Source: Naegleria gruberi
Lineage: Eukaryota
NCBI GenBank assembly: GCA_000004985.1
Contig: GG738923.1
Length of the DNA: 64,000 nucleotides
Reading direction: 5' to 3' (one strand)
Both the position numbers and the translations under genes were made by a program. Of this stretch, positions 5,736 to 54,353 are shown one piece after another. Position 1 is the stretch's first letter, and the number at the start of each line of letters is the position of its first letter. The notes beneath the pieces were generated by a model. It did no database searches and was not told the origin of the DNA. It was given only the letters and a program-made list of their open reading frames with translations.

Positions 5736-6569
5736 TTAATAATTATAGGGTGAGAAAGAAAAAACGGCACCTTTGCAAAGTTTAAAGGATGGATCTTCTC
5801 TTGATATTACAAATGGATTTTGAGATGATTTTGAAATTCTTGGAATCCATGAGACATGAACACCAAATGCTCTGGAGCATCCATTGGAATATTTTGTAAT
5901 CTCTAATGCTGAGTTAAAGTTGGATTTCTTGTAATAAATCAATCCTTGGCAGTTGTTACTGGTACAATAGGAAAAGCCATCATTTGAAATTTTGATTAAT
6001 ACTTCATGAGAGGAAATGAGTGGGAGAGTAATACTTGGTGAACAAAACAGGAAATAAACAAGTGAGATTCCAATTGATTTCAATTCTGCTATGTAACTGT
6101 GAATATAATCGTCCAATTTGGCTAGTCCAATAAGTGTTAAAGAAATGAAATAGTTCACTTTCAATTGGGAACATGTCATTAATGAATCTTCTTGGTTATC
6201 GTTCTGTGTAACGACCCATTGTAAATTATCCAAATAATAAAATTGTTTTAAAAAGGAAATTGCAGATGTTGAATTTCTCAAATATAAATCCATTCGAAAC
6301 TTGTTCCAATCCTTCTTCTCCACAAGTGCAAGATCATTTAATTGTACATATCCTTTACGTAATTCATTTGATGTTATATGTTCGATCCGATCGGGTCTTG
6401 GAGCATTCCTAAACCTTTCCGATAATACACGTTTTTGTAATCTTGTAATTGTTTTTTTCCAAGTTTTGTTCACTCTCTTGAATTTCCACTGATAGAAGTA
6501 TGGAATGAATCCAAGAATGATATCTAATAAATCATCATAAATGTAAAACTCTAGTTGATCTTGTTGCAT
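5736..6569 (-). CDS. F-box domain protein
   Basis: The N-terminus carries an F-box (LLDIILGFIPYFYQWKFKRVNKTW). The start ATG sits in an 'aaaaaaaATG' context. Confidence 0.6.
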   Translation of the reverse strand: MQQDQLEFYIYDDLLDIILGFIPYFYQWKFKRVNKTWKKTITRLQKRVLSERFRNAPRPDRIEHITSNELRKGYVQLNDLALVEKKDWNKFRMDLYLRNSTSAISFLKQFYYLDNLQWVVTQNDNQEDSLMTCSQLKVNYFISLTLIGLAKLDDYIHSYIAELKSIGISLVYFLFCSPSITLPLISSHEVLIKISNDGFSYCTSNNCQGLIYYKKSNFNSALEITKYSNGCSRAFGVHVSWIPRISKSSQNPFVISREDPSFKLCKGAVFSFSPYNY

Positions 6570-6759: not shown

Positions 6760-7986
6760 CTACTGAACAGTACATTTCTTCTCCTTGTGGTTCTTGTTTG
6801 TTTCAATTTTTTGTGGGTTTTCCAAAATGTGCAAATGAGTATGTGTCAATAATCCAAGTCTCTTATCGAAATCAATTGTTCCTTCGCCTGTTTTTGCACT
6901 TGTTTCAATAAACGAGACAGCTCCTATTGCTTTTGTAAATTCAATTCCTTCCTCTTTTGAAATTGGTTCATCAACAGTAGTAGAATAAAACAAACTATTC
7001 CAGTAGAGTGAATCTTTGAGATCGTTCTTTGTGGAAACAACAACAAATGTAGCGGTAGGAGCACCAAGAGTGCATTCCCACATCAAATGCTCAACTAAAT
7101 ATTTCAAACTTGAAAAATCATTGATGGCATAGTTCATTGTAAAAAGATTTGTCTGAGGATAAGAAAGTGGTCGCAATCTATCATAATCTTCTCCACCTGC
7201 TGTGTCCCAATATGCAACAGAAAAATCTGCTTGAGTTTCAATACCATCTACTATGCACTGTACATGCTCCGTTTTTACAAAACTGTCAAATACAGTTGGT
7301 GTGTAATCTTGAGGAAAGGAATGATACCCAACCCTATTCAAGAGACAAGTTTTTCCAACAAATGTAGCACCCATAGAAACCCATTTGAGATAATGATAAC
7401 CGGTTATTGGTTGACTTTTTGGTTCTAATCTCAGTGGTTCTTGGAGAGGTGTTTGAATGGATGACTCTTCAATAAATATTTGTTGAGCAATTCTCTTTCT
7501 TATAATACTTTCACATTTAGTATTTTTAAAAGTACCATTCTCTAGGGCTATTTTTGAAATATTATCACTAATTGATCTAATATATGATATTCTCTTTTGT
7601 CTCTTTTCTTGGAAAACTTTCCAATTATTTTCATCAATTCTCTTCCAAATTTCCTTGATGAATCGAAATCGGTAATTTCCTTCTGTTTCTTTCCATCCAA
7701 TTTTCGTACACAAAACATTGTTAATTAATTCCATCTTGTTATTGATTAAATCTTTCCAAAACCAATCACTCCACGAATAAATCATCAAACATTTTCCGAA
7801 ATTAATTGTATTGATCAAAGTTTGATTATAAAATTCGTTTTGAATTTCCTCAGATTGTGGACGATAGAATAAACTGGCCAAACCATTTAATTCTACCCGA
7901 GAGAGAAACTCCAAAATATAGAGCATTACATTTTGATCGAGTTTGTTAATAGATGAAAAGAGTTCCTTCTCTGTTGATCGTTTCAT
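6760..7986 (-). CDS. F-box plus Rho-family small GTPase fusion protein
   Basis: N-terminal F-box (VMLYILEFLSRVELNGLASLFYR). The C-terminal GTPase domain has G1 (GATFVGKTC), a Rho-like switch I (YTPTVFDSF), G3 (WDTAGGEDYDRLRPLSY), G4 (TKND) and G5 (SAK). Confidence 0.7.
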   Translation of the reverse strand: MKRSTEKELFSSINKLDQNVMLYILEFLSRVELNGLASLFYRPQSEEIQNEFYNQTLINTINFGKCLMIYSWSDWFWKDLINNKMELINNVLCTKIGWKETEGNYRFRFIKEIWKRIDENNWKVFQEKRQKRISYIRSISDNISKIALENGTFKNTKCESIIRKRIAQQIFIEESSIQTPLQEPLRLEPKSQPITGYHYLKWVSMGATFVGKTCLLNRVGYHSFPQDYTPTVFDSFVKTEHVQCIVDGIETQADFSVAYWDTAGGEDYDRLRPLSYPQTNLFTMNYAINDFSSLKYLVEHLMWECTLGAPTATFVVVSTKNDLKDSLYWNSLFYSTTVDEPISKEEGIEFTKAIGAVSFIETSAKTGEGTIDFDKRLGLLTHTHLHILENPQKIETNKNHKEKKCTVQ

Positions 7987-8003
7987 TTTTTTGATGAGTT
8001 TAT

Positions 8004-9254
8004 TTAGTAAACAGGGCCACCAAAGCTATTAGAAATGATGGAAAGGCACTTTCGAAGACCAGGTGGAATAGTTGCAGATCCCTTTCTACAACTTTCCACC
8101 TTGATATGCATCTTGTCTACTTTGAATAATAGTGGTACCTCGACTCCATTTTTCATTCCTATTGTTGTAATGCACTGAGAGAGGAAGTTGTGTTCGTCAT
8201 TTGAAACAATTTTCATAGCATCAATAATCTCAGCATAAGAGTCAGACTTCCATTTTAGATTGGTGATTTCATCCATTTTGTAAACAGTTCCGAATGAGAC
8301 ACCTTCCTCACTTGATTTCTTTCTCCACATACTATGAGGGGATGGCCTGAAATGAGATTTGAGAAGTTCCATAACCTTAGAAGGATTGCTTAATTTGATG
8401 AGTGCTCCATTCTGTTGCTCAGGAATCAAGTCTCTAATTGTTATTTCATCAGGAATATTTGAATCAATATCTCTAACATCTAGAAATGAACCATGATCCA
8501 ACAAAGGAACCTCTCTTTTTGTGACAGGAATGGTGTAATTTTCGTACTTGTTTGATAATTGCTTAGAGCAGAATGGCCAAGTTATAAAAGCCTTCTTCAA
8601 TTCTTCATGATGTATGCAATGAGATCTTCTGTGTTTACAAGTATAGCCTACATCTCCCTTGACTTGATTTTCAGGAGTGAATTCTACAATCTTTAAATCA
8701 AACTTGATATCTCCATTGACATTCTTTAGTATTCTCGCAAATTTCTGCCATTCAAGACCTTCTAGCCTTTTCTTCTCATAATCTCCAAAGTTTTTAGCCA
8801 ATTTTACACTATTCTTGCAATTTATCTTGACTTTGATTCCATTAATCAATGTAACTTCAGGGGTTATCATTGTCTTGTTGATGTTTGGCTTTGTTGATTT
8901 GGCTACCTTCTCCTTTAAGGTTTCAGCCATAGATAGAACAGGCTTGATTCGATGATGATATTGATCAGTAGCCTCCCTTTGACTTGAATGATCCTTAGCC
9001 TTTAAAGTAGTCTTACTATTCTCAATGTTTGATTTTGTTATGGTGGTTCTTTGAGCCATTTTTTTTAGGTTGTTTTTTGAATTGTGACTTCCATCAGAAA
9101 TTTCAAAACTTTGATCGACAAAATGTTTTGCTTTTAGGACGGTTGAGAGTGATATTGAAGAAACGTGATTGGATGCCCTGAATAGCAGAGACATGTTCAA
9201 AACGTATCGGAGACCAAGATGAAGGTTAACCTTGTGAATTCCCAACCCTTGCAT
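8004..9254 (-). CDS. Hypothetical basic protein. It may be an upstream exon of the F-box-Rho gene (see finding 3).
   Basis: A 416-aa ORF whose stop lies only 17 nt upstream of the next ATG. An alternative 47-nt intron (GTTTAC...AGAAG) would fuse it in frame. Confidence 0.45.
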   Translation of the reverse strand: MQGLGIHKVNLHLGLRYVLNMSLLFRASNHVSSISLSTVLKAKHFVDQSFEISDGSHNSKNNLKKMAQRTTITKSNIENSKTTLKAKDHSSQREATDQYHHRIKPVLSMAETLKEKVAKSTKPNINKTMITPEVTLINGIKVKINCKNSVKLAKNFGDYEKKRLEGLEWQKFARILKNVNGDIKFDLKIVEFTPENQVKGDVGYTCKHRRSHCIHHEELKKAFITWPFCSKQLSNKYENYTIPVTKREVPLLDHGSFLDVRDIDSNIPDEITIRDLIPEQQNGALIKLSNPSKVMELLKSHFRPSPHSMWRKKSSEEGVSFGTVYKMDEITNLKWKSDSYAEIIDAMKIVSNDEHNFLSQCITTIGMKNGVEVPLLFKVDKMHIKVESCRKGSATIPPGLRKCLSIISNSFGGPVY

Positions 9255-24346: not shown

Positions 24347-25660
24347 TCAGTCAGGTCTGATAAATCCTAAAGCGAACTCTGATCTATTAGATATTGGATA
24401 AGCGACACAATGCCCTTCCTGAATAATTTGTTTAAAATTTTGCATTGTTTCTGCCCTAAAGACATGCTTTTTACATTTTGTACAAAATCTCTTTTCATCA
24501 GCATAGTCAATTCGTTCCAATTCAGAATATTTCATAGGGCACTCGAAAATCCATTCACAATTTTCTATAAATGATTCTTGTTTTTTTACAGAAAAGGATG
24601 GTTTAGGAATTTTAAATTTTTCATCTGTTTTTGGATCTATTGTTCTCAAAATTTCTCTCACAAGTGGTAAACTTGTTGGTGAATGAATTTGTAAATGTTG
24701 AATTCTTCGTTTCATAACAATCATCCAATTTTTCACATTCAAACTCTGTTGAAATCGTGGGAAATAGAACAACACCATTGGTTTCCAAATTGTATTTTGA
24801 ATCAAATCAACATGATACTCGTCTGGATTCTTTTTGAAATGTTCCTCATCGAGAAATGATCGATACATGCCTTTGAAGGTCATTGACAAGTAGAACAACT
24901 CCTTGAGTGTTAGATAGGAAGCAACTATGGCAGTAACTTCAATTATTGTCTCTCCATTTCTAAATAAAATTCCAATATCTTTGTAAACATTTGGCGTATT
25001 TTCAATAATTGATATTACAATATTATTATCTTCAGTCAATTCAGCTGAATCTGCAAATCCACATTTAAAACTTCTCAAATGTTGGTAATCTGAAATAATT
25101 TCTCCATTTAATACATTTGCCAATTTCTCCAAATCTTGTCTGCTAATTCCTTCTTGGTAAATTATCCCAAATTTATCAAATAATTTTGAAACTAGTTGTT
25201 CATTTTCAAATAGAGAAATAACCATCTTACATCCCATCTCATTAATGATTTTTCCTATTGTAATATTATTTCTTCTTTGTTCTCTAATAGCAGCATCTAT
25301 TGCTGTATAATCCGATCCATAAATCTCCAATGAGGTTAAGGTTGGGAATTTAAAGTCAATTAATGCAACTGACACTTTTTCAATTCGTTTTCGTTTCGTA
25401 TTTGAAGACTTGTTTCTATTAACAATTTCAATTTGATTACAAAAAGTTGTTTTGAAAGAACTGGTTGCATAGAAAAACTTCAATTCATAACTTGGAACAC
25501 TAGTTTCTAATAGATGAATATTGACATTCCCATTTGATGATGTTATTTCAATGGATTGAATTTCTTCTTTAAAGTTGAACAACTCAATCAATTTTCTCTT
25601 CAATTCTTGAAACTTGTCAGGATCTACGCTGATAACACCTGGTGGTTGATCTTTTTCCAT
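24347..25660 (-). CDS. Hypothetical protein with a C-terminal Cys/His cluster. It may be the 3' exon of the upstream F-box/LRR gene.
   Basis: The ATG at 25660 is in an 'aaaaaaaaATG' context. A 61-nt intron (GTAATT...TATCAG) would alternatively fuse it in frame to 25686..27155. Confidence 0.45.
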   Translation of the reverse strand: MEKDQPPGVISVDPDKFQELKRKLIELFNFKEEIQSIEITSSNGNVNIHLLETSVPSYELKFFYATSSFKTTFCNQIEIVNRNKSSNTKRKRIEKVSVALIDFKFPTLTSLEIYGSDYTAIDAAIREQRRNNITIGKIINEMGCKMVISLFENEQLVSKLFDKFGIIYQEGISRQDLEKLANVLNGEIISDYQHLRSFKCGFADSAELTEDNNIVISIIENTPNVYKDIGILFRNGETIIEVTAIVASYLTLKELFYLSMTFKGMYRSFLDEEHFKKNPDEYHVDLIQNTIWKPMVLFYFPRFQQSLNVKNWMIVMKRRIQHLQIHSPTSLPLVREILRTIDPKTDEKFKIPKPSFSVKKQESFIENCEWIFECPMKYSELERIDYADEKRFCTKCKKHVFRAETMQNFKQIIQEGHCVAYPISNRSEFALGFIRPD

Positions 25661-25685
25661 TTTTTTTAAATCTATTTCGGAAGAA

Positions 25686-27155
25686 TTACCGATCAAATAC
25701 TTGTTTTTTCTTTTTTGAAAATGAGAGAGTTTGTTGGCCTCTATCTAATCTTTTTAAATTGGAGTTGTTTTCTTTCCTTTTGTGCACCATTTTTGGAAAA
25801 TCAACCAAGTTTACCAATTGGTCATTCATTTTCCACTTATTAATATATTTCTCAATCTTTTCATTCTCATAGTCAAGTTTAAAAACTAAGGATCTAATGG
25901 TGTTTGATAATTGTGAAGACGCAATGTGGTCTATTGCACGGAGTGAGAACATTTCACTTTTAAAAGAAAGCTGTTCAAGTTTTTTCAAATAAGTGCAATT
26001 ACTAAGATATTCAATAGATAGATCAGTTACACTAGTTGACGATATATTTAAATAAGTGAGAGGGGATTCTCTTTCCAAATTTTCAACAAATCCTTTTGTA
26101 CTCTGGTCATCCAACATTGTTTCACTTACTTCTATTGATAAATATGTTAAATTTTTCAAATATTTTGCAATGGATTGAAGAGCATTCTTTGGAGAGTTAA
26201 TAAACAACTGAAGATGTGTCAAATTTGTTGAGAGACGACCTGAAAACATTTCATTCAAATCATCGAGAGTAAAATTAATCCCATGTAAACCTTTTTGTAT
26301 AGATATACTGGTCAAGCTTGTCAAATGTATACTTGTTCCTAACAATTTCATAGAATTCAAATCACTTGATGAAATATGATTCAATTTGATTTTTTCCACG
26401 TTTGACATATTCTCTGTATCAATATCTTTCAAATTTACCTTTCCATATCTTATTGATATTTCCTTCAGTTCTTTCATTTGCGTTATCAGCTTGAAACATT
26501 CTGGTGTGGTGTTTGCTACAGACATTTGTTGTAAATGTTTCATATTTTCATAAATTATTTGCATTTGTTCATAGTCTATTGTATTGAATACAGAAAACAC
26601 CTTCAATTTCCCCAATAATGGATTGCTAGCTACCTTTCCAATTCCACTCTTTGTAATATCAGACCAAATTGTCAATTTCTCCAGATTTCCAATATAAGGA
26701 CAAGCACTAATTGCCAAAGCAACATTATAATCGCACCCAACAACTTGATATCCTAAAAGAAACAAACTCAATTCGGTCAATTGCTCCAACTCTTTACATT
26801 TGAATAATTGACACAATTCATTAGAATAGTTCATTTGTGATTTTCTAGATTCAATTTTTAAAACTTTCAAGCTTTTCATCTCTGATAAATTCTCACAAAA
26901 TTCCACCACACATGATTCATCTTCAACGAGAAAAGAAAGTGATTGAATATTTTTCAATATGAATGATGATGATCGGAATAAAGAAACAAGAATTGAATCT
27001 CTGATTTGGATCATGTCATACAATTTACATTTAATCACCTCGGATCGCCATAGCTTGGACACCATTGAACAATTGATAATTATTTGTTTCCATGGGAGAA
27101 ATTGCATTATTTGAAAGCAAACATCTGCTGGAATGAACACCTCTTGTTGTGTCAT
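25686..27155 (-). CDS. F-box/LRR-repeat protein
   Basis: N-terminal F-box (CFQIMQFLPWKQIIINCSMVSKLWRSEV) followed by Leu-rich repeats. Confidence 0.65.
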   Translation of the reverse strand: MTQQEVFIPADVCFQIMQFLPWKQIIINCSMVSKLWRSEVIKCKLYDMIQIRDSILVSLFRSSSFILKNIQSLSFLVEDESCVVEFCENLSEMKSLKVLKIESRKSQMNYSNELCQLFKCKELEQLTELSLFLLGYQVVGCDYNVALAISACPYIGNLEKLTIWSDITKSGIGKVASNPLLGKLKVFSVFNTIDYEQMQIIYENMKHLQQMSVANTTPECFKLITQMKELKEISIRYGKVNLKDIDTENMSNVEKIKLNHISSSDLNSMKLLGTSIHLTSLTSISIQKGLHGINFTLDDLNEMFSGRLSTNLTHLQLFINSPKNALQSIAKYLKNLTYLSIEVSETMLDDQSTKGFVENLERESPLTYLNISSTSVTDLSIEYLSNCTYLKKLEQLSFKSEMFSLRAIDHIASSQLSNTIRSLVFKLDYENEKIEKYINKWKMNDQLVNLVDFPKMVHKRKENNSNLKRLDRGQQTLSFSKKKKQVFDR

Positions 27156-28668: not shown

Positions 28669-29703
28669 ATGAAACAACTTAATGAGGACGAATTATTGTT
28701 AATTTTTTCATATTTAAATTTTTCAGAGGTTTTAAATGTTTCGTTAATGAAAAATCGGAAAGTGTACAATTTGATTGGATCTTGTCGCGCGTGGAGGGAA
28801 ATGTATTTAGATTGTATATCTATTATTCAGGAATTTAAAAAGTTTGATGAAAGATGTTGTTGTTCCGAGGAGGCTGGAAAACTTGCTCTTTCCTCTGATT
28901 TTAGAAAATTATATTTTGAACAGATGAGAGAATATTATTTACGTTCGGATATGAATGAACAAGCACTTGTGGAGAGAATTGAAGAATTGGAATCGAACAG
29001 GAAATCTTCATCAACAACTGTTTTTAGAGAATATCATGAATTATTGAAAGATTATCCAAATATCAAAAGTAATGACTTGTATGTTAAATTTATGGTGGTT
29101 GGAAGTAGTTGTGGAAAGACTTCTTTTTTGTATCATTTGAGTTTGGGACTGCATCCTCCTTATTCGAATGTTGCTTCTAATTTGCAATACTTACCAAGTA
29201 TTCATGATGGATATTCCACAAATTTGATATTTGGATCTTCTTTTTGTAATATTGGATTTTGGGATACATCGGGAAAATCAGAATATAAAACACTTAGACC
29301 ATTGAGCTATCCAGGGACAGATGTGTGTTTTCTTTGCTTTGACTGCATGAGCTATGATTCATTGGATTTAGCGATTAATACATTTTTGGAGGAATTAACA
29401 AGTCATATGAAACAAGAAGGGAAAACTTTTCCTATTGCTTTGCTTTCAACAAAGCATGATTTGCAGCAAGATAGAAAGGAAGTATTGAAATTACTAATTT
29501 CAAAACAACAAAAACCAATTAATAGTCAACTTGGAGAAAGAATAGCAAAAGCAATCGGATGTGTAACCTATTTGGAATCCATTCTTCTTCCATCTAAAGA
29601 TTACTTTAAGATAATTTTCAATATTTCAAGAATTGAGAAACTTCCAGTAACAACAGAAAAGCAATCCTTGCTACAGAAACTAGGTAGATTTTTCAAAAAG
29701 TAA
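28669..29703 (+). CDS. F-box plus Rho/Ras-like GTPase fusion protein, paralog of 6760..7986
   Basis: F-box (LLLIFSYLNFSEVLNVSLMKNRKVYNL). GTPase motifs G1 (GSSCGKTS), G3 (WDTSGKSEYKTLRPLSYPG) and G4 (TKHD). Confidence 0.7.
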   Translation: MKQLNEDELLLIFSYLNFSEVLNVSLMKNRKVYNLIGSCRAWREMYLDCISIIQEFKKFDERCCCSEEAGKLALSSDFRKLYFEQMREYYLRSDMNEQALVERIEELESNRKSSSTTVFREYHELLKDYPNIKSNDLYVKFMVVGSSCGKTSFLYHLSLGLHPPYSNVASNLQYLPSIHDGYSTNLIFGSSFCNIGFWDTSGKSEYKTLRPLSYPGTDVCFLCFDCMSYDSLDLAINTFLEELTSHMKQEGKTFPIALLSTKHDLQQDRKEVLKLLISKQQKPINSQLGERIAKAIGCVTYLESILLPSKDYFKIIFNISRIEKLPVTTEKQSLLQKLGRFFKK

Positions 29704-29723: not shown

Positions 29724-32700
29724 TTACAATTCAATAGTTGAAAGAACAGTTCCTGGAGAAATCAACTCTTTACAATCCTCTTCTCTATCTTCAAAAAGTA
29801 AATCGGTTGGAGAGTTGACCATAGGGGAGTCCATATTTGGAGATCCAATGCTCTCTGTTTTGAAAATAGTAGCAACATTAGAAATTGGTTTCTCTCCCAA
29901 GGCAGTAATAGTCCATTCATGATTATAGATTGGATCATTGCATTTGTGTTTTTGGAGAAGCTTTTTGAAATTCTTACGTTTTCCACACAAGAATAAAATA
30001 TCACTCGCTTCAACTTTTCCAGTTCCGACAGGATTAGTGTAGACATATCTGTATAGTTTGTCATATCTGTATCTACTGACACCCAATAGAATGAGATCTT
30101 TTTCAAAGCAAGCATCAACAAGCTCTGAAACTGGTAAATTAACAAAAACTGTTGGAACGGGAACTTCAAAGATTATAGATTGAGATTCTGTAGCTGAAAA
30201 CTCATCAGCAAGCATTTGGTCCACCAAATCAACAACTCTTCTATTATGGAAGGATTGTGCCAACAGCTTACTAAGGAAGGAAGAACTTGGGAAAATCTTT
30301 CCAGAAATATAAAAATCAGAAAACAAACAGAATTGATCAAAATCATCGATATCATAATCTAATACTTGCTTTTCTCTTAACAATCTCACCTTTTGATAAG
30401 TTGGAATACCTTCGTGTTGGAAAAACTTCAAATTGGATCTGTTTACCAATTCGAGAAGGTACTTCTTTCGAGGATCAATTACAGCCATACCCAAAGCCAA
30501 TTTGATTGCTTCAGAATCGATTGTGTACTCATTTTCGAAAGAACCAACTTCATCCTCATCACCATCATTTCCTGTATTCATCAACGAGGCATCTTGGGTA
30601 AAGTACATGACAGTTTGGGCAGATGAGAAACCAGCTCTTCTCAAATCATGAGATTTGATTGGATTACCAGAAATAAAATAGACATCTTTGAAATATTTCA
30701 ATCTTTCGTAGAGAGAGTTGAAATACTTGTCAACAAGGTGGGTCATGAATACTATTGGAGTGTTTCTATTTCTTCTCTGAATTGATCTAACCAATGAACA
30801 AATAATTAATGGTTGTTGGAATTCTCCTAGAACAAGGATATGATCTTTCAATTCAAATGGAACTTTGAAACTTGAAATGAGGAATTGTTGTTTAGTTCTT
30901 GGAGTTCTTGTCATGCTATAGCTAGCAATAATGGAATTGTAGAATTCATCTTCCTTTTCTTTCCTTTCTTGCTCTGATTGTATTTCTCTTATTTGTCTCA
31001 GCTGACTTCTCATTTCTGCAAAGCAAGGTTCAGTAGCGATGAGTTTGAGTAAAATTTCCAAGTGAAGATTATTCATTTCTTCCTGTTGTTCAGTTTCAAT
31101 TTCATCACTCAACAGATAGATGTCAGCATTATGACCTCCAACAGAGTATGTCAATCCATATCTGTTTGATTTTCTATTATCTTTCTTTTTCTTATTGTCC
31201 ACTTCATTTTCTTGTTTTTCTGTAATCTTTAATATTTCGATTTGACCTTTGGTGAGCTCTTCGTGTGACTGTTCTCCAGCATTCTTCAAGTATTCTTCGA
31301 ATCTAGATTCAAAGTACTCGATTTCAATAGCATCTTCCTTTGTTTTTTCTACACCATAGTCCATTCTTGAACTTTTCCTGGAAATGTATTGATCCTTGTC
31401 TCCTGTTTGAGTGAATGTTTGAACCTGTTCAGCATGCTCAATGCTCTTAGCAATACAGAAGCATTTATCACCATCCTTGATGAGGTATCGAGATGGATTG
31501 AGGAATATTCTTCCCTGCTTATCTTCTAAAGCATAGGCAGCAATTTCGCATTTCTTGAGCAAGGTTCTAGCAGCATCAACGAATAAACTTCCAACAAATG
31601 CCTTACTGAACTTTACACGATAAATTTCACAATTCAAACCCTCTGAATATTCCACAATCCACTTGATATCATTTTCAATTGATGTAGTATTCTTTCCGGA
31701 TTGCATGTCAAACTTGTGGTGGTCTCCTGTGAGTAATCCCTTAGGAATCTTGTCCATTTCAATATCAACATCAGCACCACTCAACAAGTTGAACAAAAAA
31801 GAACACAAGCCACCAGAGCTTGAAGAGCCTGAAAGAAGCTTTGTACAGAAAGACTCATTACAAATCACAACCTTGGCACCTGCCTTAATGGCGTAATGTT
31901 TGGATTCAATCAAGTTGATTTGGGCATAGACCTTCAAATTTTGATTAAAGTTTTTAAGAGCAATAGTGGTCATAATTACAGAAGTGTCTTCCTTTCTTGC
32001 ATTTCCCATTTTTGGACTGTTAAGTAAGAATACTGAATGGGCATCAGATATTTTGAGTAGTTTCATCATTTCATAGTCCATGATTTCTCCACACAAAACA
32101 TTAATATTATTTTTAAAGCTGGATTTTCTCAAACTCTCTTTTAGCAAGTCACAGAATTCTCTCTTCTTGAAGACCACTTGTTTTTTTGTAAATTCCACCA
32201 ATTGAAATAGAATAATACTTACATATAATCTTGGTTACACTCTTATTCTTGTATTGGAAACATTCCTTAATGAAATCGACAACTTCATCCACTCTACAAA
32301 CTCCCGTGACAATAGCATGATTTCTAAGCTTTGGATTTTTAGCTTGAAATATACTTCTTTCACTTGTCAAAATATCATAAATTCCAGAAATTTGAATTGG
32401 AATGGTAGTGATACCAATCAAGAAGAAAATTACGACGGCAAATCTTGCTGGAACAGTTGTTGGTGACTGCACAAAATAAACAAATCAATACAATGTTCAA
32501 ATACTTACAATATCACCATAACCAATTGTAGTCAAGGTGATGGCAATAAAATATAATGCATCATGGAAGTAAATCTTTCTGTTTCCGACTGTATTCTCCA
32601 ACCACTGAAATATTCCTGAAAAGAGAATCAACAAACAAGCAATCAATAATCCTAATTCCAAAACTTTTCCCACAACTGTATCTCCTCTATTACCAATTTT

Positions 32701-36481: not shown

Positions 36482-38649
36482 ATGGAAGCAACAAGTGCAC
36501 AATTAAATAATCCTTTTAGTGTTTTTGTTTCATCAAATAATGAAGTTTTTATTGCTGACTATAGCAATCAAAGCATTAGAAAAGTATTACAAAATGGAAA
36601 TATTGTAACAATAGCTGGAAATGGAGATAAAGGATTTAGTGGTGATAATTGTCTAGCAACAAGTGCACAATTAAATAATCCTATTGGTGTTTTTGTTTCA
36701 TCAATAATGAAGTTTATATTTCTGACTATTGTAATCATGTAATTAGAAAGATTTTACAAAATGGAACTATTGTAACAATTGCTGGAAATGGAAAACCTGG
36801 ATTCGGTGGTGATAATGGCCTAGCAACAAATGCACAGTTGAATTACCCTAGAAATGTATATGTTTCATCAAATAATGAAGTTTATATTGCTGACTTTTGT
36901 AATCAAAGAATTAGAAAAGTATTACAAAATGGAAATATTATAACAATAGCTGGAAATGGAACTAAAGGATTTAGTGGTGATAATGGTCCTGCAACAAATG
37001 CACAATTAAATGGTCCTGCAGGCGTTTTTGTTTCAAATAATGAAGTCTATATTGCTGACTATAGTAATCATGTAATTAGAAAGATTTCACAAAATGGAAC
37101 TATTGTAACTATAGCTGGAAATGGAAAACCTGGATTCAGTGGTGATAATGGACTTGCAACAAATGCACAATTATATAATCCTTCAGGCACTTTTGTTTCA
37201 TCGAACAATGAAGTTTATATTTCTGATTGTTTTAATCATGTAATTAGAAAGATTTTACAAAATGGAACTATTGTAACAATTGCTGGAAATGGGAAAGGAG
37301 GATTCAGTGGTGATAATGGCCTTGCAACAAATGCACAATTATATAGTCCTTTAGGTGTTTTTGTTTCATCAAATAATGAAGTTTATATATCTGACTGTTT
37401 TAATCATAGAATTAGAAAGGTATTACATAATGGAAATATTGTAACAATAGCTGGAAATGGAACACCTGGATTCAGTGGAGATTCTCCATTTGATATTTCA
37501 CTCTATCCTCATTTCGGAAATAGTAGCTCTTTAACTAGAAGAATAGAATTTCATAGTTTGAAAAAATATTCAAGAGATCAATTATTTGGATTGGAAATTT
37601 ATGGATTCATGCCACTAATTGAAAGAATATCAATTCAATTCAGTCAAATTCTGAAAAATGAAAAGATAATTTGGTCAATGAATGCTTCACAACGTGCAAT
37701 TATTCAAAAACTAATTAATTCTCTCATATATGATAATAATCAATTGAATTTTACAAAGAATGAACTATTAGATGTATTATTTATTTTAGGATTATTTAAA
37801 AATGGCGAATTTATTGAGCTTAAAAGATCATTGACAAGTGATTTTATTAATTCCATTACCTTGAAAGAATTTCCTGCTGAATGGGAAAAAATTGAATCGC
37901 TGATCATGACATGCAAAGATTTTGGAAATGAAAATTACATTCTTGAATGCTTGAACAATTTCTGTATTGAATTTGTTGCTGTCAAAATGAAGACCACAGA
38001 GGGAAGTGCTGTTTTGTCTTCCCTTCCAATAGTTTTGCGAAATGCTACTGCTTTTTTCCCAAAATTGGTACTTGGTCAACCAACCCCAATCAACATTGAA
38101 GAAAAAATTGAAGTTAATCCACAAACATTAGAATCATTATTTAACGATAAGAAAACAAGTGATATTCAAATCAAAATGGGAGAAGACAAGTATTTATATT
38201 GTCACAAAACTGTTTTGAGCACCACTAGTACCTTCTTTGCTGCCCTATTTGAAAGTGGATCATCCTTTAGTGATTTTAATAATGGAATTTTCACACCAGA
38301 TGAATCAGAAGATTTGGAATTATTGGAAATTATCATCAAATATTGTTATGGAATTTCATTCGACAATGAAAAAATTTCTGGATTGTTAGACATGGCAATG
38401 AAACATGAAATTAAATATTTAGTCGATTATTATTGTATTAATTTCACGCTCTCCATTCAAAATTACTTTTCCATTGTATCAACATGTGAACAGTATTTGG
38501 ATTTACCTGTATTTGAAGGATTTTTCAAAGAAATTATTAGATTTGGAGTTACCAACAAGAAGCAACTCTTTACTGATTTGAGTGTTCTTTCTAAATTACC
38601 TGAAAAAGTTTGGCAGGTGATGTTCTTGAATTGGGCTCAGGATAATTGA
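36482..38649 (+). CDS. NHL-repeat protein with a C-terminal BTB/POZ domain. It carries a 1-nt deletion frameshift at about 36703.
   Basis: About 8 NHL repeats (NNEVYIADxxNHxIRKILQNGTIVTIAGNG) and a BTB domain (DIQIKMGEDKYLYCHKTVLSTTSTFFAALF). At 36700-36705 'tcaataatg' replaces the 'tcaaataatg' found in the other repeats. Confidence 0.6.
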
Positions 38650-52775: not shown

Positions 52776-54353
52776 TTAAATGTGATTATTAATGTCTATT
52801 GAAAACAGATCAATCATTGCATTAAACAGTTGACCATCCTTCAAATTCTTCATTGTAAAATATCCTTTCATAAAGCCAATCTCCTCCTCAGTTTCTGTAC
52901 ATGAATTGTAAGTAAACACTGATCCTGGTGTAACTGTTGGATACAATCCAACAACACCTGGTCCATCCACAACTTCAGGAGTCTCATTTTGCACATCAGA
53001 AGTTAAATAAATCTCCCAATGTCTACTCACTAATTTACACGAATTCTGAGTGCTTTCATTCTTGTCCATTGTAATCTTAATTCTATAGGAAAAGTAATAG
53101 TGTACTTCTTCAGGTGAGTATCGAGAAAGTTCTGGAACGAGTAGAGACTGACAGTAAATCTTAACTCCATTCGTTGTAGTTTCTGAACCAAAATTCTTGG
53201 TTGGGAATCTATTAATGCTTCCATCAGGCTCAAAATCAAACAAATTGAGTATTGTCAAATTATTGACATAGGTTTCGAACCAATTGGAGAATGAATCTGA
53301 GAAAATCATTGGGTAATTGTTACCACTCATTTGATAGATAGTACCCTTCTTAATTGAAACTTCCAAAACATCATCTGTAATATCTTGAGAGGCACACAAC
53401 ACTGCACAGTAAGAGTTCAATATGATTGGATATGAACTTGCAAGGCAAATATTGTTTGATTTTTTCAACATTTCTGAATAGTGCATCAAATTGTCAAATC
53501 CCAATAATGGTAAACGAGCTTGATAATCATAAAATCCATATCCTCCAAAGAAGGCATAATTCTTATTTTTCAAATCTAATTGACCATCTGTTAACAAGTA
53601 AAGTTGAGTGTATTCGAAACATGTTCCAATTTCACAAAGCTTAATCTTCTTTGCCTCGATAGAATCCAATAAATTATGACCCTCCGAGAATGAAATACTA
53701 TTAGCAATGAGTGGAGAATGAACAGAAAGATAAACCTCCATTTGATTCAACAATTTTCTCATTTTACAATGCTTCTTGCATCCATCCTCAATATCAATAT
53801 TCAATTCGCCAATATACATTTCATAATAATATCTGAATAACAATTTAAATACATCTTCTTGTTCCAATCCTCCTCCAATTTTAGTAAATAATAATTCAAT
53901 TGTTTCCGACCATCTTTTCAAAATATTATTAATTCCATAATGTTTGTATTTGGACACAACAATGCACCGATCATTTTGTCTAATAATTTTCTCTTCATCT
54001 TCTTGTTCAAAGGCTTTGAAACAATCATTCGGAATGTTTTCAAATAATTGTTCAAGTTTCAAGCCAGATCCGATTACAATCTTATTTGCATCTTGAATCA
54101 CAATATTAGGAAGTGAAAAGTAGGATTGGCACTTGCTCTTCCAAACTATTTGGCTCCTCTCAATTTGATGCAATACGGAATGAACAGAGGAAATTTGTGT
54201 CAAATCCCTCACGTTCATATATTCGAAACAGTGAGTTAGAATTTCCGATGGTAATTGTAGCAGTGGAGCAAGATTAGTACTTGTTAAGTCATCACTCATT
54301 TCAACTTTTTGTTTTTTAGCAGAGGGAAGTAAATCAATCTTATCTGGCACCAT
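52776..54353 (-). CDS. F-box domain protein, 525 aa
   Basis: F-box (LLQLPSEILTHCFEYMNVRDLTQISSVHSVLHQ). Confidence 0.6.
   Translation of the reverse strand: MVPDKIDLLPSAKKQKVEMSDDLTSTNLAPLLQLPSEILTHCFEYMNVRDLTQISSVHSVLHQIERSQIVWKSKCQSYFSLPNIVIQDANKIVIGSGLKLEQLFENIPNDCFKAFEQEDEEKIIRQNDRCIVVSKYKHYGINNILKRWSETIELLFTKIGGGLEQEDVFKLLFRYYYEMYIGELNIDIEDGCKKHCKMRKLLNQMEVYLSVHSPLIANSISFSEGHNLLDSIEAKKIKLCEIGTCFEYTQLYLLTDGQLDLKNKNYAFFGGYGFYDYQARLPLLGFDNLMHYSEMLKKSNNICLASSYPIILNSYCAVLCASQDITDDVLEVSIKKGTIYQMSGNNYPMIFSDSFSNWFETYVNNLTILNLFDFEPDGSINRFPTKNFGSETTTNGVKIYCQSLLVPELSRYSPEEVHYYFSYRIKITMDKNESTQNSCKLVSRHWEIYLTSDVQNETPEVVDGPGVVGLYPTVTPGSVFTYNSCTETEEEIGFMKGYFTMKNLKDGQLFNAMIDLFSIDINNHI

Follow-up and report, generated by a model that had tools for sequence, protein, structure and literature searches.

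Two atypical Rho-type GTPase genes of Naegleria gruberi with F-box-like N-terminal extensions

Two genes in a 64,000-nucleotide stretch of Naegleria gruberi NEG-M DNA (contig GG738923.1, hereafter the window) encode proteins in which an N-terminal extension resembling an F-box precedes a Rho-type GTPase domain. We consider it moderately likely that both are divergent, unflagged members of a Naegleria-specific Rho/Rac expansion with an F-box-derived N-terminal extension, the putative SCF mechanism outlined below included. Since this type of fusion has already been published for Naegleria, the finding, though real, is for the most part ordinary; it adds a little to a known, uncharacterised class and brings no new kind of system to light.

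Two Rho-type GTPase genes in one window

Gene 1 (6760..7986, minus strand) is an open reading frame (ORF) for a single-exon Rho/Rac-like protein of 408 aa, and gene 2 (28669..29703, plus strand) is an ORF of 344 aa. Both are present as the initial annotation had placed them, and all motifs quoted there were recovered (WDTAGGEDYDRLRPLSY, YTPTVFDSF, GSSCGKTS, DTSGKSEY and TKHD). They are the sole GTPase ORFs among the 209 ORFs of the window. The window as a whole is poor in GC, and its ORFs are long and free of introns. A giant-virus or bacterial source was considered on these grounds and then dropped, as a 100% match to N. gruberi emerged. The gene 1 ORF is the same as N. gruberi XP_002669751.1 in its corrected form, and an identical sequence is found in Table S8 of Herman et al. 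2021, where it is entered as 'Rac' with no extra domain.

The GTPase domain of gene 1 occupies aa 199-386 (6829..7392, minus strand). It matches Pfam Ras with 87.4 bits (1e-24; cut-off 21.6), and its best solved relatives are RhoA/Rac1 (1.2e-26). That of gene 2, at aa 138-318 (29080..29622, plus strand), is a divergent Rac-like domain according to Pfam Ras (2.9e-17, 63.2 bits, same cut-off), its best solved relative Rac1 (2.6e-24) and motif alignment. In both proteins the alignment continues across the Rac1/RhoA insert region that follows G4, where gaps do not exceed one residue. The assignment of C-terminal Rho-type GTPases is upheld, but their description as complete domains was too generous. 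Gene 1 has the P-loop GATFVGKT, G3 DTAGGE, G4 TKND and G5 SAK; motif alignment places T208 at the Gly12 position and G265 at the Gln61 position, with the other motifs intact. In gene 2 the P-loop GSSCGKT has seven residues, one short, switch I carries an 8-aa insertion, G3 reads DTSGKS (K203 at the Gln61 position), G4 is TKHD and G5 is lost (SIL). Judged by these motifs, both proteins are atypical Rho family members and are predicted to be non-cycling GTPases; the gene 2 domain may be a pseudo-GTPase.

At its C-terminus, gene 1 carries the CaaX box CTVQ (aa 405-408; 6763..6774, minus strand), a predicted prenylation site read from the sequence at which the protein is presumably modified. Counterparts in other family members are CSVQ, CSKQ and CDVQ. 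Gene 2 is devoid of a CaaX box and its C-terminal end reads ...GRFFKK.

The term paralogs, used for the two genes in the initial annotation, holds only loosely: their GTPase domains are 28% identical and BLASTP found no similarity between their N-terminal parts. A recent tandem duplication was rejected on account of this identity. When an HMM of the gene 1 N-terminus was run against the window, the next best match was the N-terminus of gene 2 (E 0.0012), and an N(F/Y)R helix downstream of the N-terminal segment is common to both families. The 21-kb spacing of the genes had been taken as a sign of a real family. The genome of N. gruberi comprises about 41 Mb. Its Rho genes number more than 80 (Herman et al. 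2021, PMC8296547). About 0.1 further Rho genes are thus expected per 64 kb; given this figure and the distant kinship of the two genes, their closeness proves little. The family itself is real, as relatives in Naegleria testify, and the proposed check for further paralogs retrieved N. gruberi relatives of both genes.

The gene 1 subfamily, known only from Naegleria, numbers no fewer than three proteins in N. gruberi (XP_002669751.1, XP_002676342.1 and ACER01000104.1) and two in N. lovaniensis. Gene 1 shares 49% identity with its paralog XP_002676342.1 over 97% of the length, and the extension is conserved as well as the GTPase domain (46% versus 49% overall). Conservation of the extension extends over N. 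gruberi paralogs and N. lovaniensis; it is retained even in an N. lovaniensis protein whose GTPase motifs have decayed. Exhaustive profile search with the gene 1 extension yielded only 4 relatives.

This distribution bears on the possibility that the F-box-like and GTPase parts belong to different genes or exons and only seem to share an ORF. The gene 1 ATG lies 17 bp from the stop of the upstream ORF (8004..9254), so gene boundaries are tight here, which would suit such an artefact. On the other hand, both ORFs are uninterrupted, the same layout and N-terminal start position recur in N. gruberi paralogs and N. lovaniensis proteins, and the curated gene 1 model is the same ORF. An error in the gene models is accordingly highly improbable; paralogs and N. 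lovaniensis proteins preserve the two-part layout, and for this reason a mis-join or an artefact of two genes was dismissed; the initial annotation had likewise held against a mis-join.

F-box resemblance of the N-terminal extensions

In gene 1, F-box-like helices 1 and 2 were located at aa 13-39 (INKLDQNVMLYILEFLSRVELNGLASL; 7870..7950, minus strand) by hhalign and AF2, with no Pfam match. They are followed by a 24-residue insertion kept across the family (aa 40-63; 7798..7869, minus strand), which separates helix 2 from a helix 3-like segment; the insertion segment is conserved in 6 family members. A candidate helix 3 with terminal Trp was assigned to aa 64-79 (GKCLMIYSWSDWFWKD; 7750..7797, minus strand). 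This segment matches the ...D..LW end of F-boxes once the insertion is taken out, and its W72, D74 and W77 are invariant among family members. The remainder up to the GTPase domain is a helical linker (aa 80-197; 7396..7749, minus strand), predicted by AF2 and conserved with the paralog, in which the N-Y/F-R helix occupies aa 104-117 (7636..7677, minus strand). The corresponding segment of gene 2 is a putative divergent F-box at aa 2-47 (KQLNEDELLLIFSYLNFSEVLNVSLMKNRKVYNLIGSCRAWREMYL; 28672..28809, plus strand), proposed from a sub-threshold match to Pfam F-box-like and from hhalign with paralogs.

The initial annotation had assigned an F-box to both proteins and named failure at F-box HMM thresholds as grounds for withdrawing it. 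Both N-termini do fall short of the Pfam cut-offs, which are 24.3 bits for F-box-like (PF12937) and 20.5 bits for F-box (PF00646). Protein 1 has no Pfam F-box match at E<=10, whether tested at full length, in a fragment of 100 aa or after excision of the insertion. When the insertion was removed from five gene 1 family members, four gave no F-box match and the fifth matched only in the helix 1-2 stretch (13.4 bits). Protein 2 reaches 14.7-19.0 bits with F-box-like (best E 0.0012) and 11.3-13 bits with F-box. PF00646 matches at E<=10 were obtained for 6 of the 9 aligned gene 2 family members, protein 2 among them (best 3.6e-6; protein 2 E 0.1).

What stands of the F-box assignment is a likeness detected by profile-profile comparison. 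Aligned with canonical F-boxes by hhalign, the gene 1 family gives 79% probability (E 1.6e-5) over 27 columns covering helices 1-2. Values for this helix pair range over 74-79%; only after the 24 residues are deleted do they rise to 90-93%, with an alignment of 44 columns and a score of 32-35, against a maximum of 22.6 in the scan-matched null. For gene 2 combined with its paralogs from N. gruberi, the value is 97.1% (E 5.8e-11, 45 columns). In comparison with 14 canonical F-boxes, the gene 1 family scores 28.7, whereas column-shuffled nulls have a mean of ~10 and a maximum of 17; since shuffled columns lose their helix periodicity as well, this null is lenient. Protein 2 by itself reaches 26.5 over only 24 columns (null maximum 15.9). 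The gene 1 score comes mostly from one amphipathic Leu-rich helix pair. The two families align with each other at 86%, with a 24-residue gap at the insertion, and protein 2 alone aligns at 85% with its paralogs when it is left out of their profile. Moreover, a small HMM of canonical F-boxes ranks the two GTPase ORFs third and fourth of 209, after two Pfam-positive F-box proteins.

The gene 2 extension further aligns with F-box-bearing Rac paralogs of N. gruberi, and three gene 2 paralogs are flagged F-box in Table S8. Its first helix opens with L-N, not Leu-Pro, a variant also seen in Naegleria paralogs flagged F-box; gene 1 has L-D where the F-box has Leu-Pro. Taken together, these profile comparisons indicate that the F-box resemblance of both N-termini is more than chance. 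The alignment to canonical F-boxes of gene 2 and its N. gruberi paralogs (97%) supports a divergent F-box; that of the gene 1 family (74-93%) speaks for a pair of F-box-like helices and a conserved insertion of 24 residues.

Modelling of gene 1 adds a structural aspect. AF2 predicts helices at residues 18-26 and 30-39. The full-length model has a pTM of 0.79, with pLDDT 70-95 in the N-terminal and linker helices, while the N-terminal domain modelled alone has a pLDDT of 50.5. Foldseek search of PDB with the isolated model retrieved no structural match to F-box proteins, only meaningless hits (E>=2). The difference between the confident full-length model and the isolated domain suggests intramolecular packing.

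These data have to be weighed against a different reading, according to which the extensions are helical domains specific to the lineage and without affinity for Skp1, were never F-boxes (gene 1) or have decayed, and have no link with ubiquitin ligases. They would instead be intramolecular regulators, or dimerisation or targeting modules, of atypical Rho proteins. Such a role agrees with the Pfam thresholds missed by both proteins (with gene 1 lacking a match even without its insertion), the missing L-P pair in both, the position of the 24-residue insertion where contacts of the helix 2-helix 3 loop would be, and the confident placement of the N-terminal helices relative to the GTPase only in the full-length AF2 model. 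Neither gene, in addition, has an F-box entered in Table S8. Several observations argue to the contrary: in profile-profile comparison both genes resemble F-boxes to a degree well beyond shuffled nulls, family similarity in the case of gene 2 spans the whole F-box, and paralogs that pass F-box models also have the L-N-D/E-D variant in their first helix. Besides, the standard design of F-box proteins puts the F-box at the extreme N-terminus and a linker and interaction domain after it. Helical domains that do not engage Skp1 are a possible but somewhat doubtful explanation, and an F-box origin of both extensions is preferred here.

For gene 2, the F-box reading also depends on the start codon. 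The annotated model (XP_002669712.1, 'small GTPase') has 300 aa and covers only aa 45-344, with 100% identity to gene 2. It begins MYLDCISII at Met45 (28801..28803, plus strand), a codon inside the F-box-like segment, most of which lies upstream. If Met45 (28801) were correct, the upstream 44 codons would be 5' UTR, the motif would be a relic and the protein would have no F-box. This applies to gene 2 only; it is in keeping with the GenBank/RefSeq model, left uncorrected by Herman et al., and yet we regard it as unlikely on four grounds. The ORF is open up to an ATG (28669) in the context AAAAAAATGAAAC, the same as at the gene 1 start. The 44 upstream residues align with the N-terminal F-box of the paralogs, at equal distance to the N(F/Y)R helix. 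Met45 itself sits within the motif (SCRAWREMY). Finally, the 344-aa version with an identical N-terminus was called in an independent ENA assembly. The true start of gene 2 is probably the upstream ATG at 28669, the annotation being placed 44 codons too far downstream.

Related fusions and a proposed mechanism

The initial annotation called the F-box-GTPase architecture non-standard; it is already catalogued for N. gruberi and N. fowleri (PMC8296547), and TbFRP of Euglenozoa has been described as well (PMC3593210). Herman et al. (2021, BMC Biol, PMC8296547, Supplementary Material 4, Table S8) reported fusions of F-box with Rab, Rho and Ran as well as with G-alpha in Naegleria and already suggested GTPase-dependent ubiquitination. 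Fourteen N. gruberi 'Rac' entries of that table are flagged F-box, some of them also Kelch or BTB (PMC8296547). The present genes agree with these fusions in organism and layout, which consists of N-terminal F-box, linker and Rho/Rac-type GTPase, often with CaaX, and gene 2 aligns with several flagged entries. They differ in that gene 1, gene 2, XP_002676342.1 and ACER01000104.1 are entered as plain 'Rac', that their F-box-like segments are sub-threshold in Pfam and in gene 1 harbour the 24-residue insertion, and that the published gene 2 model is devoid of the F-box-like segment. Both genes were looked at by the curators of Table S8, who entered no extra domain for either. On the profile evidence, the F-box-Rho class probably includes two catalogued 'Rac' genes as well as the gene 1 subfamily, all of them missed by domain databases.

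A functional parallel, at most, is RhoBTB, in which an atypical Rho domain is likewise fused to an adaptor module of a cullin-RING ligase, the Gly12 equivalent is substituted and GEF/GAP logic is not expected. For RhoBTB, a model of intramolecular autoinhibition and auto-ubiquitination has been put forward (PMC4931677). Its adaptor consists of tandem BTB domains at the C-terminus (Cul3), whereas that considered here is N-terminal and F-box-like (Skp1-Cul1); neither protein has a Pfam match to BTB. Separate genuine RhoBTB genes exist in Naegleria. The likeness is one of analogy, not of membership. In general, where a cullin-ligase adaptor module is fused to a small GTPase, a direct coupling of ubiquitination to the state of the GTPase is suggested.

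By analogy with RhoBTB-Cul3, the following mechanism can be envisaged. Gene 1 would comprise an N-terminal domain of ~190 aa, opening with an F-box-like helix pair split by the 24-residue insertion, and a Rho domain with nucleotide-binding motifs kept, the catalytic Gly12/Gln61 equivalents gone and a CaaX end. Gene 2, read from ATG 28669, would consist of a divergent F-box, then a linker of helices and, last, a degenerate Rac-like domain in which nucleotide cycling may have ceased. The F-box-like head might dock Skp1-Cul1, and the GTPase-deficient, probably permanently GTP-bound Rho domain could act as a target-binding or gating module, in gene 1 possibly anchored to the membrane. Turnover would then proceed by auto-ubiquitination and not by GAPs. 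What the analysis shows are the identities of the domains, the membership of the families, the state of the motifs and their conservation; Skp1 binding, nucleotide state and a role in ubiquitination are what we infer for both proteins from such parallels. A more specific version, in which the gene 1 subfamily represents membrane-anchored, GTPase-dead Rho proteins whose insertion-split F-box core recruits Skp1-Cul1 under control of Rho conformation, is a tentative proposal and rather improbable in its entirety. Were it true, this subfamily would be a convergent SCF counterpart of RhoBTB-Cul3 and, to our knowledge, the first tested GTPase-gated F-box receptor.

Substituted Gly12/Gln61 equivalents combined with intact nucleotide-binding motifs and a farnesyl-type CaaX define Rnd and RhoH. 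Both substitutions and the intact motifs recur here, and gene 1 also shares this type of CaaX. Rnd and RhoH, however, have no N-terminal F-box-like domain and belong to an unrelated lineage, and the Naegleria likeness to them is one of sequence motifs.

TbFRP is a FYVE-F-box-Ras-like GTPase of Euglenozoa for which its authors found no N. gruberi ortholog (PMC3593210). As in the present proteins, a single polypeptide carries an F-box ahead of its small-GTPase domain, and its host is likewise a member of Discoba. It differs by its N-terminal FYVE domain, to which neither protein has a Pfam match, and by a Rab18-like GTPase in place of the Rho-type found here. The TbFRP fusion and the Naegleria fusions are independent.

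Two ORFs with Rho-type GTPase domains

The window has about 34% GC and its ORFs are long, mostly without introns and code for eukaryotic proteins. Both ORFs described in the initial annotation as fusions of an F-box with a Rho-family GTPase exist, 6760..7986 on the minus strand (protein 1, 408 aa) and 28669..29703 on the plus strand (protein 2, 344 aa), and all motifs quoted there were found in them. Protein 1 is identical at every residue to XP_002669751.1 in the "corrected" version given in Table S8 of the Naegleria GTPase catalogue (Herman et al. 2021, PMC8296547). Among database entries, the N. gruberi paralog XP_002676342.1 ("rho family small GTPase") comes nearest to it, sharing 49% identity across 97% of length. 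XP_002669712.1, "small GTPase" from a 326.8-kb N. gruberi scaffold, is 100% identical to protein 2, which identifies the window as N. gruberi NEG-M.

The C-terminal small-GTPase domain is evident in both proteins. Pfam Ras scores 87.4 bits in protein 1 and 63.2 bits in protein 2, far above the cut-off of 21.6 bits; best solved relatives are RhoA/Rac1 (1.2e-26) and Rac1 (2.6e-24), respectively, and the Rho insert can be aligned in both. No further GTPase was found by HMM/phmmer scan among the 209 stop-to-stop ORFs of the window.

Protein 1 contains the motifs GATFVGKT (P-loop, G1; T208 occupies the position of Ras Gly12 and RhoA Gly14), YTPTVFD (switch I, G2), DTAGGE (G3; G265 at the Gln61/63 position), TKND (G4) and SAK (G5), and ends with the CaaX box CTVQ. 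Within the Ras superfamily, such a pattern is typical of proteins that bind nucleotide but hydrolyse it inefficiently, among them Rnd, RhoH and RhoBTB. Judged from these residues, protein 1 is predicted to behave in this way, and to attach to membrane via a prenyl group. The P-loop of protein 2, GSSCGKT, has 7 residues versus 8, switch I carries an 8-residue insertion and Ser in place of Thr, G3 is DTSGKS with Lys at the Gln61 position, G4 is TKHD, and both G5 and a CaaX box are absent; its affinity for nucleotide may be low or lost altogether.

Related proteins were found by homology search. In P0128 (Naegleria lovaniensis XP_044543528.1), which is related to gene 1, both the N-terminal domain and the CaaX box are preserved, but the switch I Thr is lost and G3 and G4 are decayed to DISSKE and LKKE. 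This protein is apparently a pseudo-GTPase whose N-terminal extension outlived the catalytic site. P0066, a metagenomic Rho-BTB-Kelch protein of 452 aa, has DTAGPE instead of DTAGQE, and the Kelch-F-box-Rho proteins P0058, P0060 and P0089 likewise lack the catalytic Gln. Within this small sample, Gln61 is lost from Rho domains fused to ligase-adaptor modules.

Resemblance of the N-terminal heads to F-boxes

The N-terminal F-box was originally proposed subject to HMM thresholds, and both proteins fail these: protein 1 has no Pfam F-box match at all, and protein 2 reaches at most 19.0 bits with F-box-like (cut-off 24.3 bits) and 13 bits with F-box (cut-off 20.5 bits). Alignments were therefore compared as profiles by hhalign. 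The reference alignment A5 comprised 14 canonical F-boxes: those of Skp2, Fbxw7 and Cdc4, flagged Naegleria Rab/Rac segments and those of two Kelch-F-box-Rho proteins. F-box status of the latter segments is given by the Table S8 flag or, in the two Kelch-F-box-Rho proteins, by precomputed Pfam domains. In A4, the N-terminus of protein 2 was aligned with eight Rac paralogs of N. gruberi from Table S8, three of which are flagged there as F-box. For the protein 1 family, A3 comprised the first 100 residues of protein 1 itself, XP_002676342.1, one protein of N. lovaniensis and two fragments from metagenomes.

A4 aligns with A5 over 45 columns, which is the entire F-box, at 97.1% probability (E 5.8e-11), and removal of protein 2 from A4 leaves this unchanged (97.0%). 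Protein 2 by itself scores 26.5 against A5, over only 24 columns, compared with a mean of 9.6 and a maximum of 15.9 for a column-shuffled null, such nulls being lenient because shuffling removes helix periodicity. Its N-terminus matches paralog N-termini at 85%. Individually, PF00646 is matched at E<=10 by six of the nine A4 members, protein 2 counted; the best reaches 3.6e-6, protein 2 only 0.1. We read this N-terminus as a divergent but genuine F-box homolog.

The annotated model of protein 2 begins at Met45 (28801), within the motif (...SCRAWRE-M-YLD). The ORF is open to an upstream ATG at 28669, whose A-rich context AAAAAAATGAAAC is identical to the one in which protein 1 begins. The 44 residues gained in this way can be aligned with N-terminal F-boxes of paralogs. 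This 344-aa ORF is also present in an independent ENA assembly, where a single residue is substituted in another part of the protein. The upstream start is quite probably correct, the start of XP_002669712.1 being annotated too far downstream.

Relationship of the protein 1 head to F-boxes is less certain. A3 matches A5 at 79% over just 27 columns, corresponding to helices 1-2 (LDQNVMLYILEFLSRVELNGLASL), with a score of 28.7 against a shuffled-null maximum of 17. A3 and A4 match at 86%, and a 24-residue gap sets the family-invariant W..D..FW onto the D..LW end of the F-box. A deletion scan was performed on the protein 1 family together with a third N. gruberi paralog, ACER01000104.1 (Table S8). 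Whichever 24-residue stretch between residues 34 and 69 is deleted, the alignment extends to 44 F-box columns, the probability being 90-93% and the score 32-35, versus a maximum of 22.6 in the same scan on shuffled F-box profiles. Four of the five deleted sequences have no match to Pfam F-box; the fifth scores 13.4 bits, over the helix pair only. With the protein 1-family HMM, the protein 2 N-terminus is the next best match in the window (E 0.0012), and when the 209 ORFs are ranked by the canonical F-box HMM, the two with a GTPase come third and fourth, after two Pfam-positive F-box proteins. Farther downstream, both families have a conserved N-(F/Y)-R helix in common. The head of protein 1 may be F-box-derived or F-box-like, in either case with a conserved insertion.

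A mis-join of this head and the GTPase was also considered. Every member of the protein 1 family has its start 13-18 residues upstream of the motif, and the curated model is the ORF itself. The extension is conserved like the G domain (46% versus 49% overall) and kept in P0128 despite the decayed G3 and G4. We therefore regard it as belonging functionally to the protein, and not as the product of a mis-join.

Published fusions and possible function

The architecture, thought at first to be non-standard, has already been described for Naegleria (Herman et al. 2021, Supplementary Material 4, PMC8296547), where fusions of an F-box with Rab, Rho, Ran or G-alpha are reported and ubiquitination dependent on the GTPase is suggested. 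In Table S8, an F-box flag is carried by 14 "Rac" entries of N. gruberi, some of which are also flagged Kelch or BTB; XP_002669751.1, XP_002669712.1, XP_002676342.1 and ACER01000104.1 are entered as plain "Rac" there, without a further domain (PMC8296547). Kelch-F-box-Rho relatives also occur in Willaertia and metagenomes. Our two genes are probably sub-threshold additional members of an already published kind of protein; that the four entries are F-box-type as well, as seems probable, would be the sole addition to the catalogue.

Spacing of 21 kb between the two genes had been taken as an argument for a real family. The N. gruberi genome has about 41 Mb. More than 80 Rho genes have been counted in it (Herman et al. 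2021, PMC8296547). At such a density, two of them within 64 kb are no surprise. The G domains of the two proteins share 28% identity, and no similarity between their N-termini was found by BLASTP. A real fusion family is better argued from conservation of the extension across paralogs and species than from proximity.

TbFRP of Euglenozoa is an independent FYVE-F-box-GTPase, in which the F-box role is putative (PMC3593210). RhoBTB combines an atypical Rho domain, in which Gly12 is substituted, with a BTB that binds Cul3; the adaptor is autoinhibited by the Rho domain and the protein itself is ubiquitinated (PMC4931677). Since proteins 1 and 2, unlike RhoBTB, have no BTB, RhoBTB may be their best functional analogue by analogy only.

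We propose that the F-box-like head would recruit Skp1-Cul1 and that the Rho domain, predicted not to hydrolyse GTP and, in protein 1, to be anchored to the membrane, would bind targets or gate access to the head. Abundance would be set by auto-ubiquitination, not by GAPs. The AF2 model of full-length protein 1 (mean pLDDT 79.5, pTM 0.79) has N-terminal helices at residues 18-26, 30-39, 63-70 and 74-92, which together with later helices reach pLDDT 70-95. On the contrary, the N-terminal domain in isolation is modelled poorly (pLDDT 50.5), and Foldseek search with this isolated model gave no meaningful match. The difference is a hint that helical extension and G domain are packed together in the full-length protein. 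In the main rival reading, which we consider less likely, the heads would serve as regulatory helices within the molecule and would have lost Skp1 binding, if that of protein 1 ever had it.

Other genes in the window

Gene 1 is separated by 17 bp (7987..8006, minus strand) from the TAA stop of an upstream ORF on the same strand (8004..9254; 416 aa, no Pfam match), a distance in which an intergenic promoter or 5' UTR could hardly be accommodated. The gene directly downstream (5736..6569, minus strand) opens with an F-box-like motif (PF00646 18.3 bits, cut-off 20.5), so that two F-box-like genes adjoin here.

A genuine F-box protein is encoded at 52776..54353 on the minus strand (PF00646 29.9 bits); with its C-terminal ApaG/DUF525 domain it has an FBXO3-like layout. 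Another F-box ORF with weak LRR (25686..27155, minus strand, within 24347..27155; PF00646 21.4 bits) overlaps by 11 bp with a TTG-initiated ORF downstream (24347..25696, minus strand) that has a partial TCP-1/cpn60 match. Both may be parts of a single gene, interrupted by a frameshift or a short intron.

Gene 2 lies tail to tail, with stop codons 20 bp apart, with an 825-aa ORF containing BK/Slo-type RCK domains (29724..32201, minus strand). Since this ORF has no transmembrane part and a TTG "start", 5' exons of the channel are probably located elsewhere upstream. ORF 36838..38649 (plus strand), TTG-initiated and therefore probably just part of a gene, codes for an NHL-repeat and BTB protein, another cullin-adaptor-type architecture in the window.
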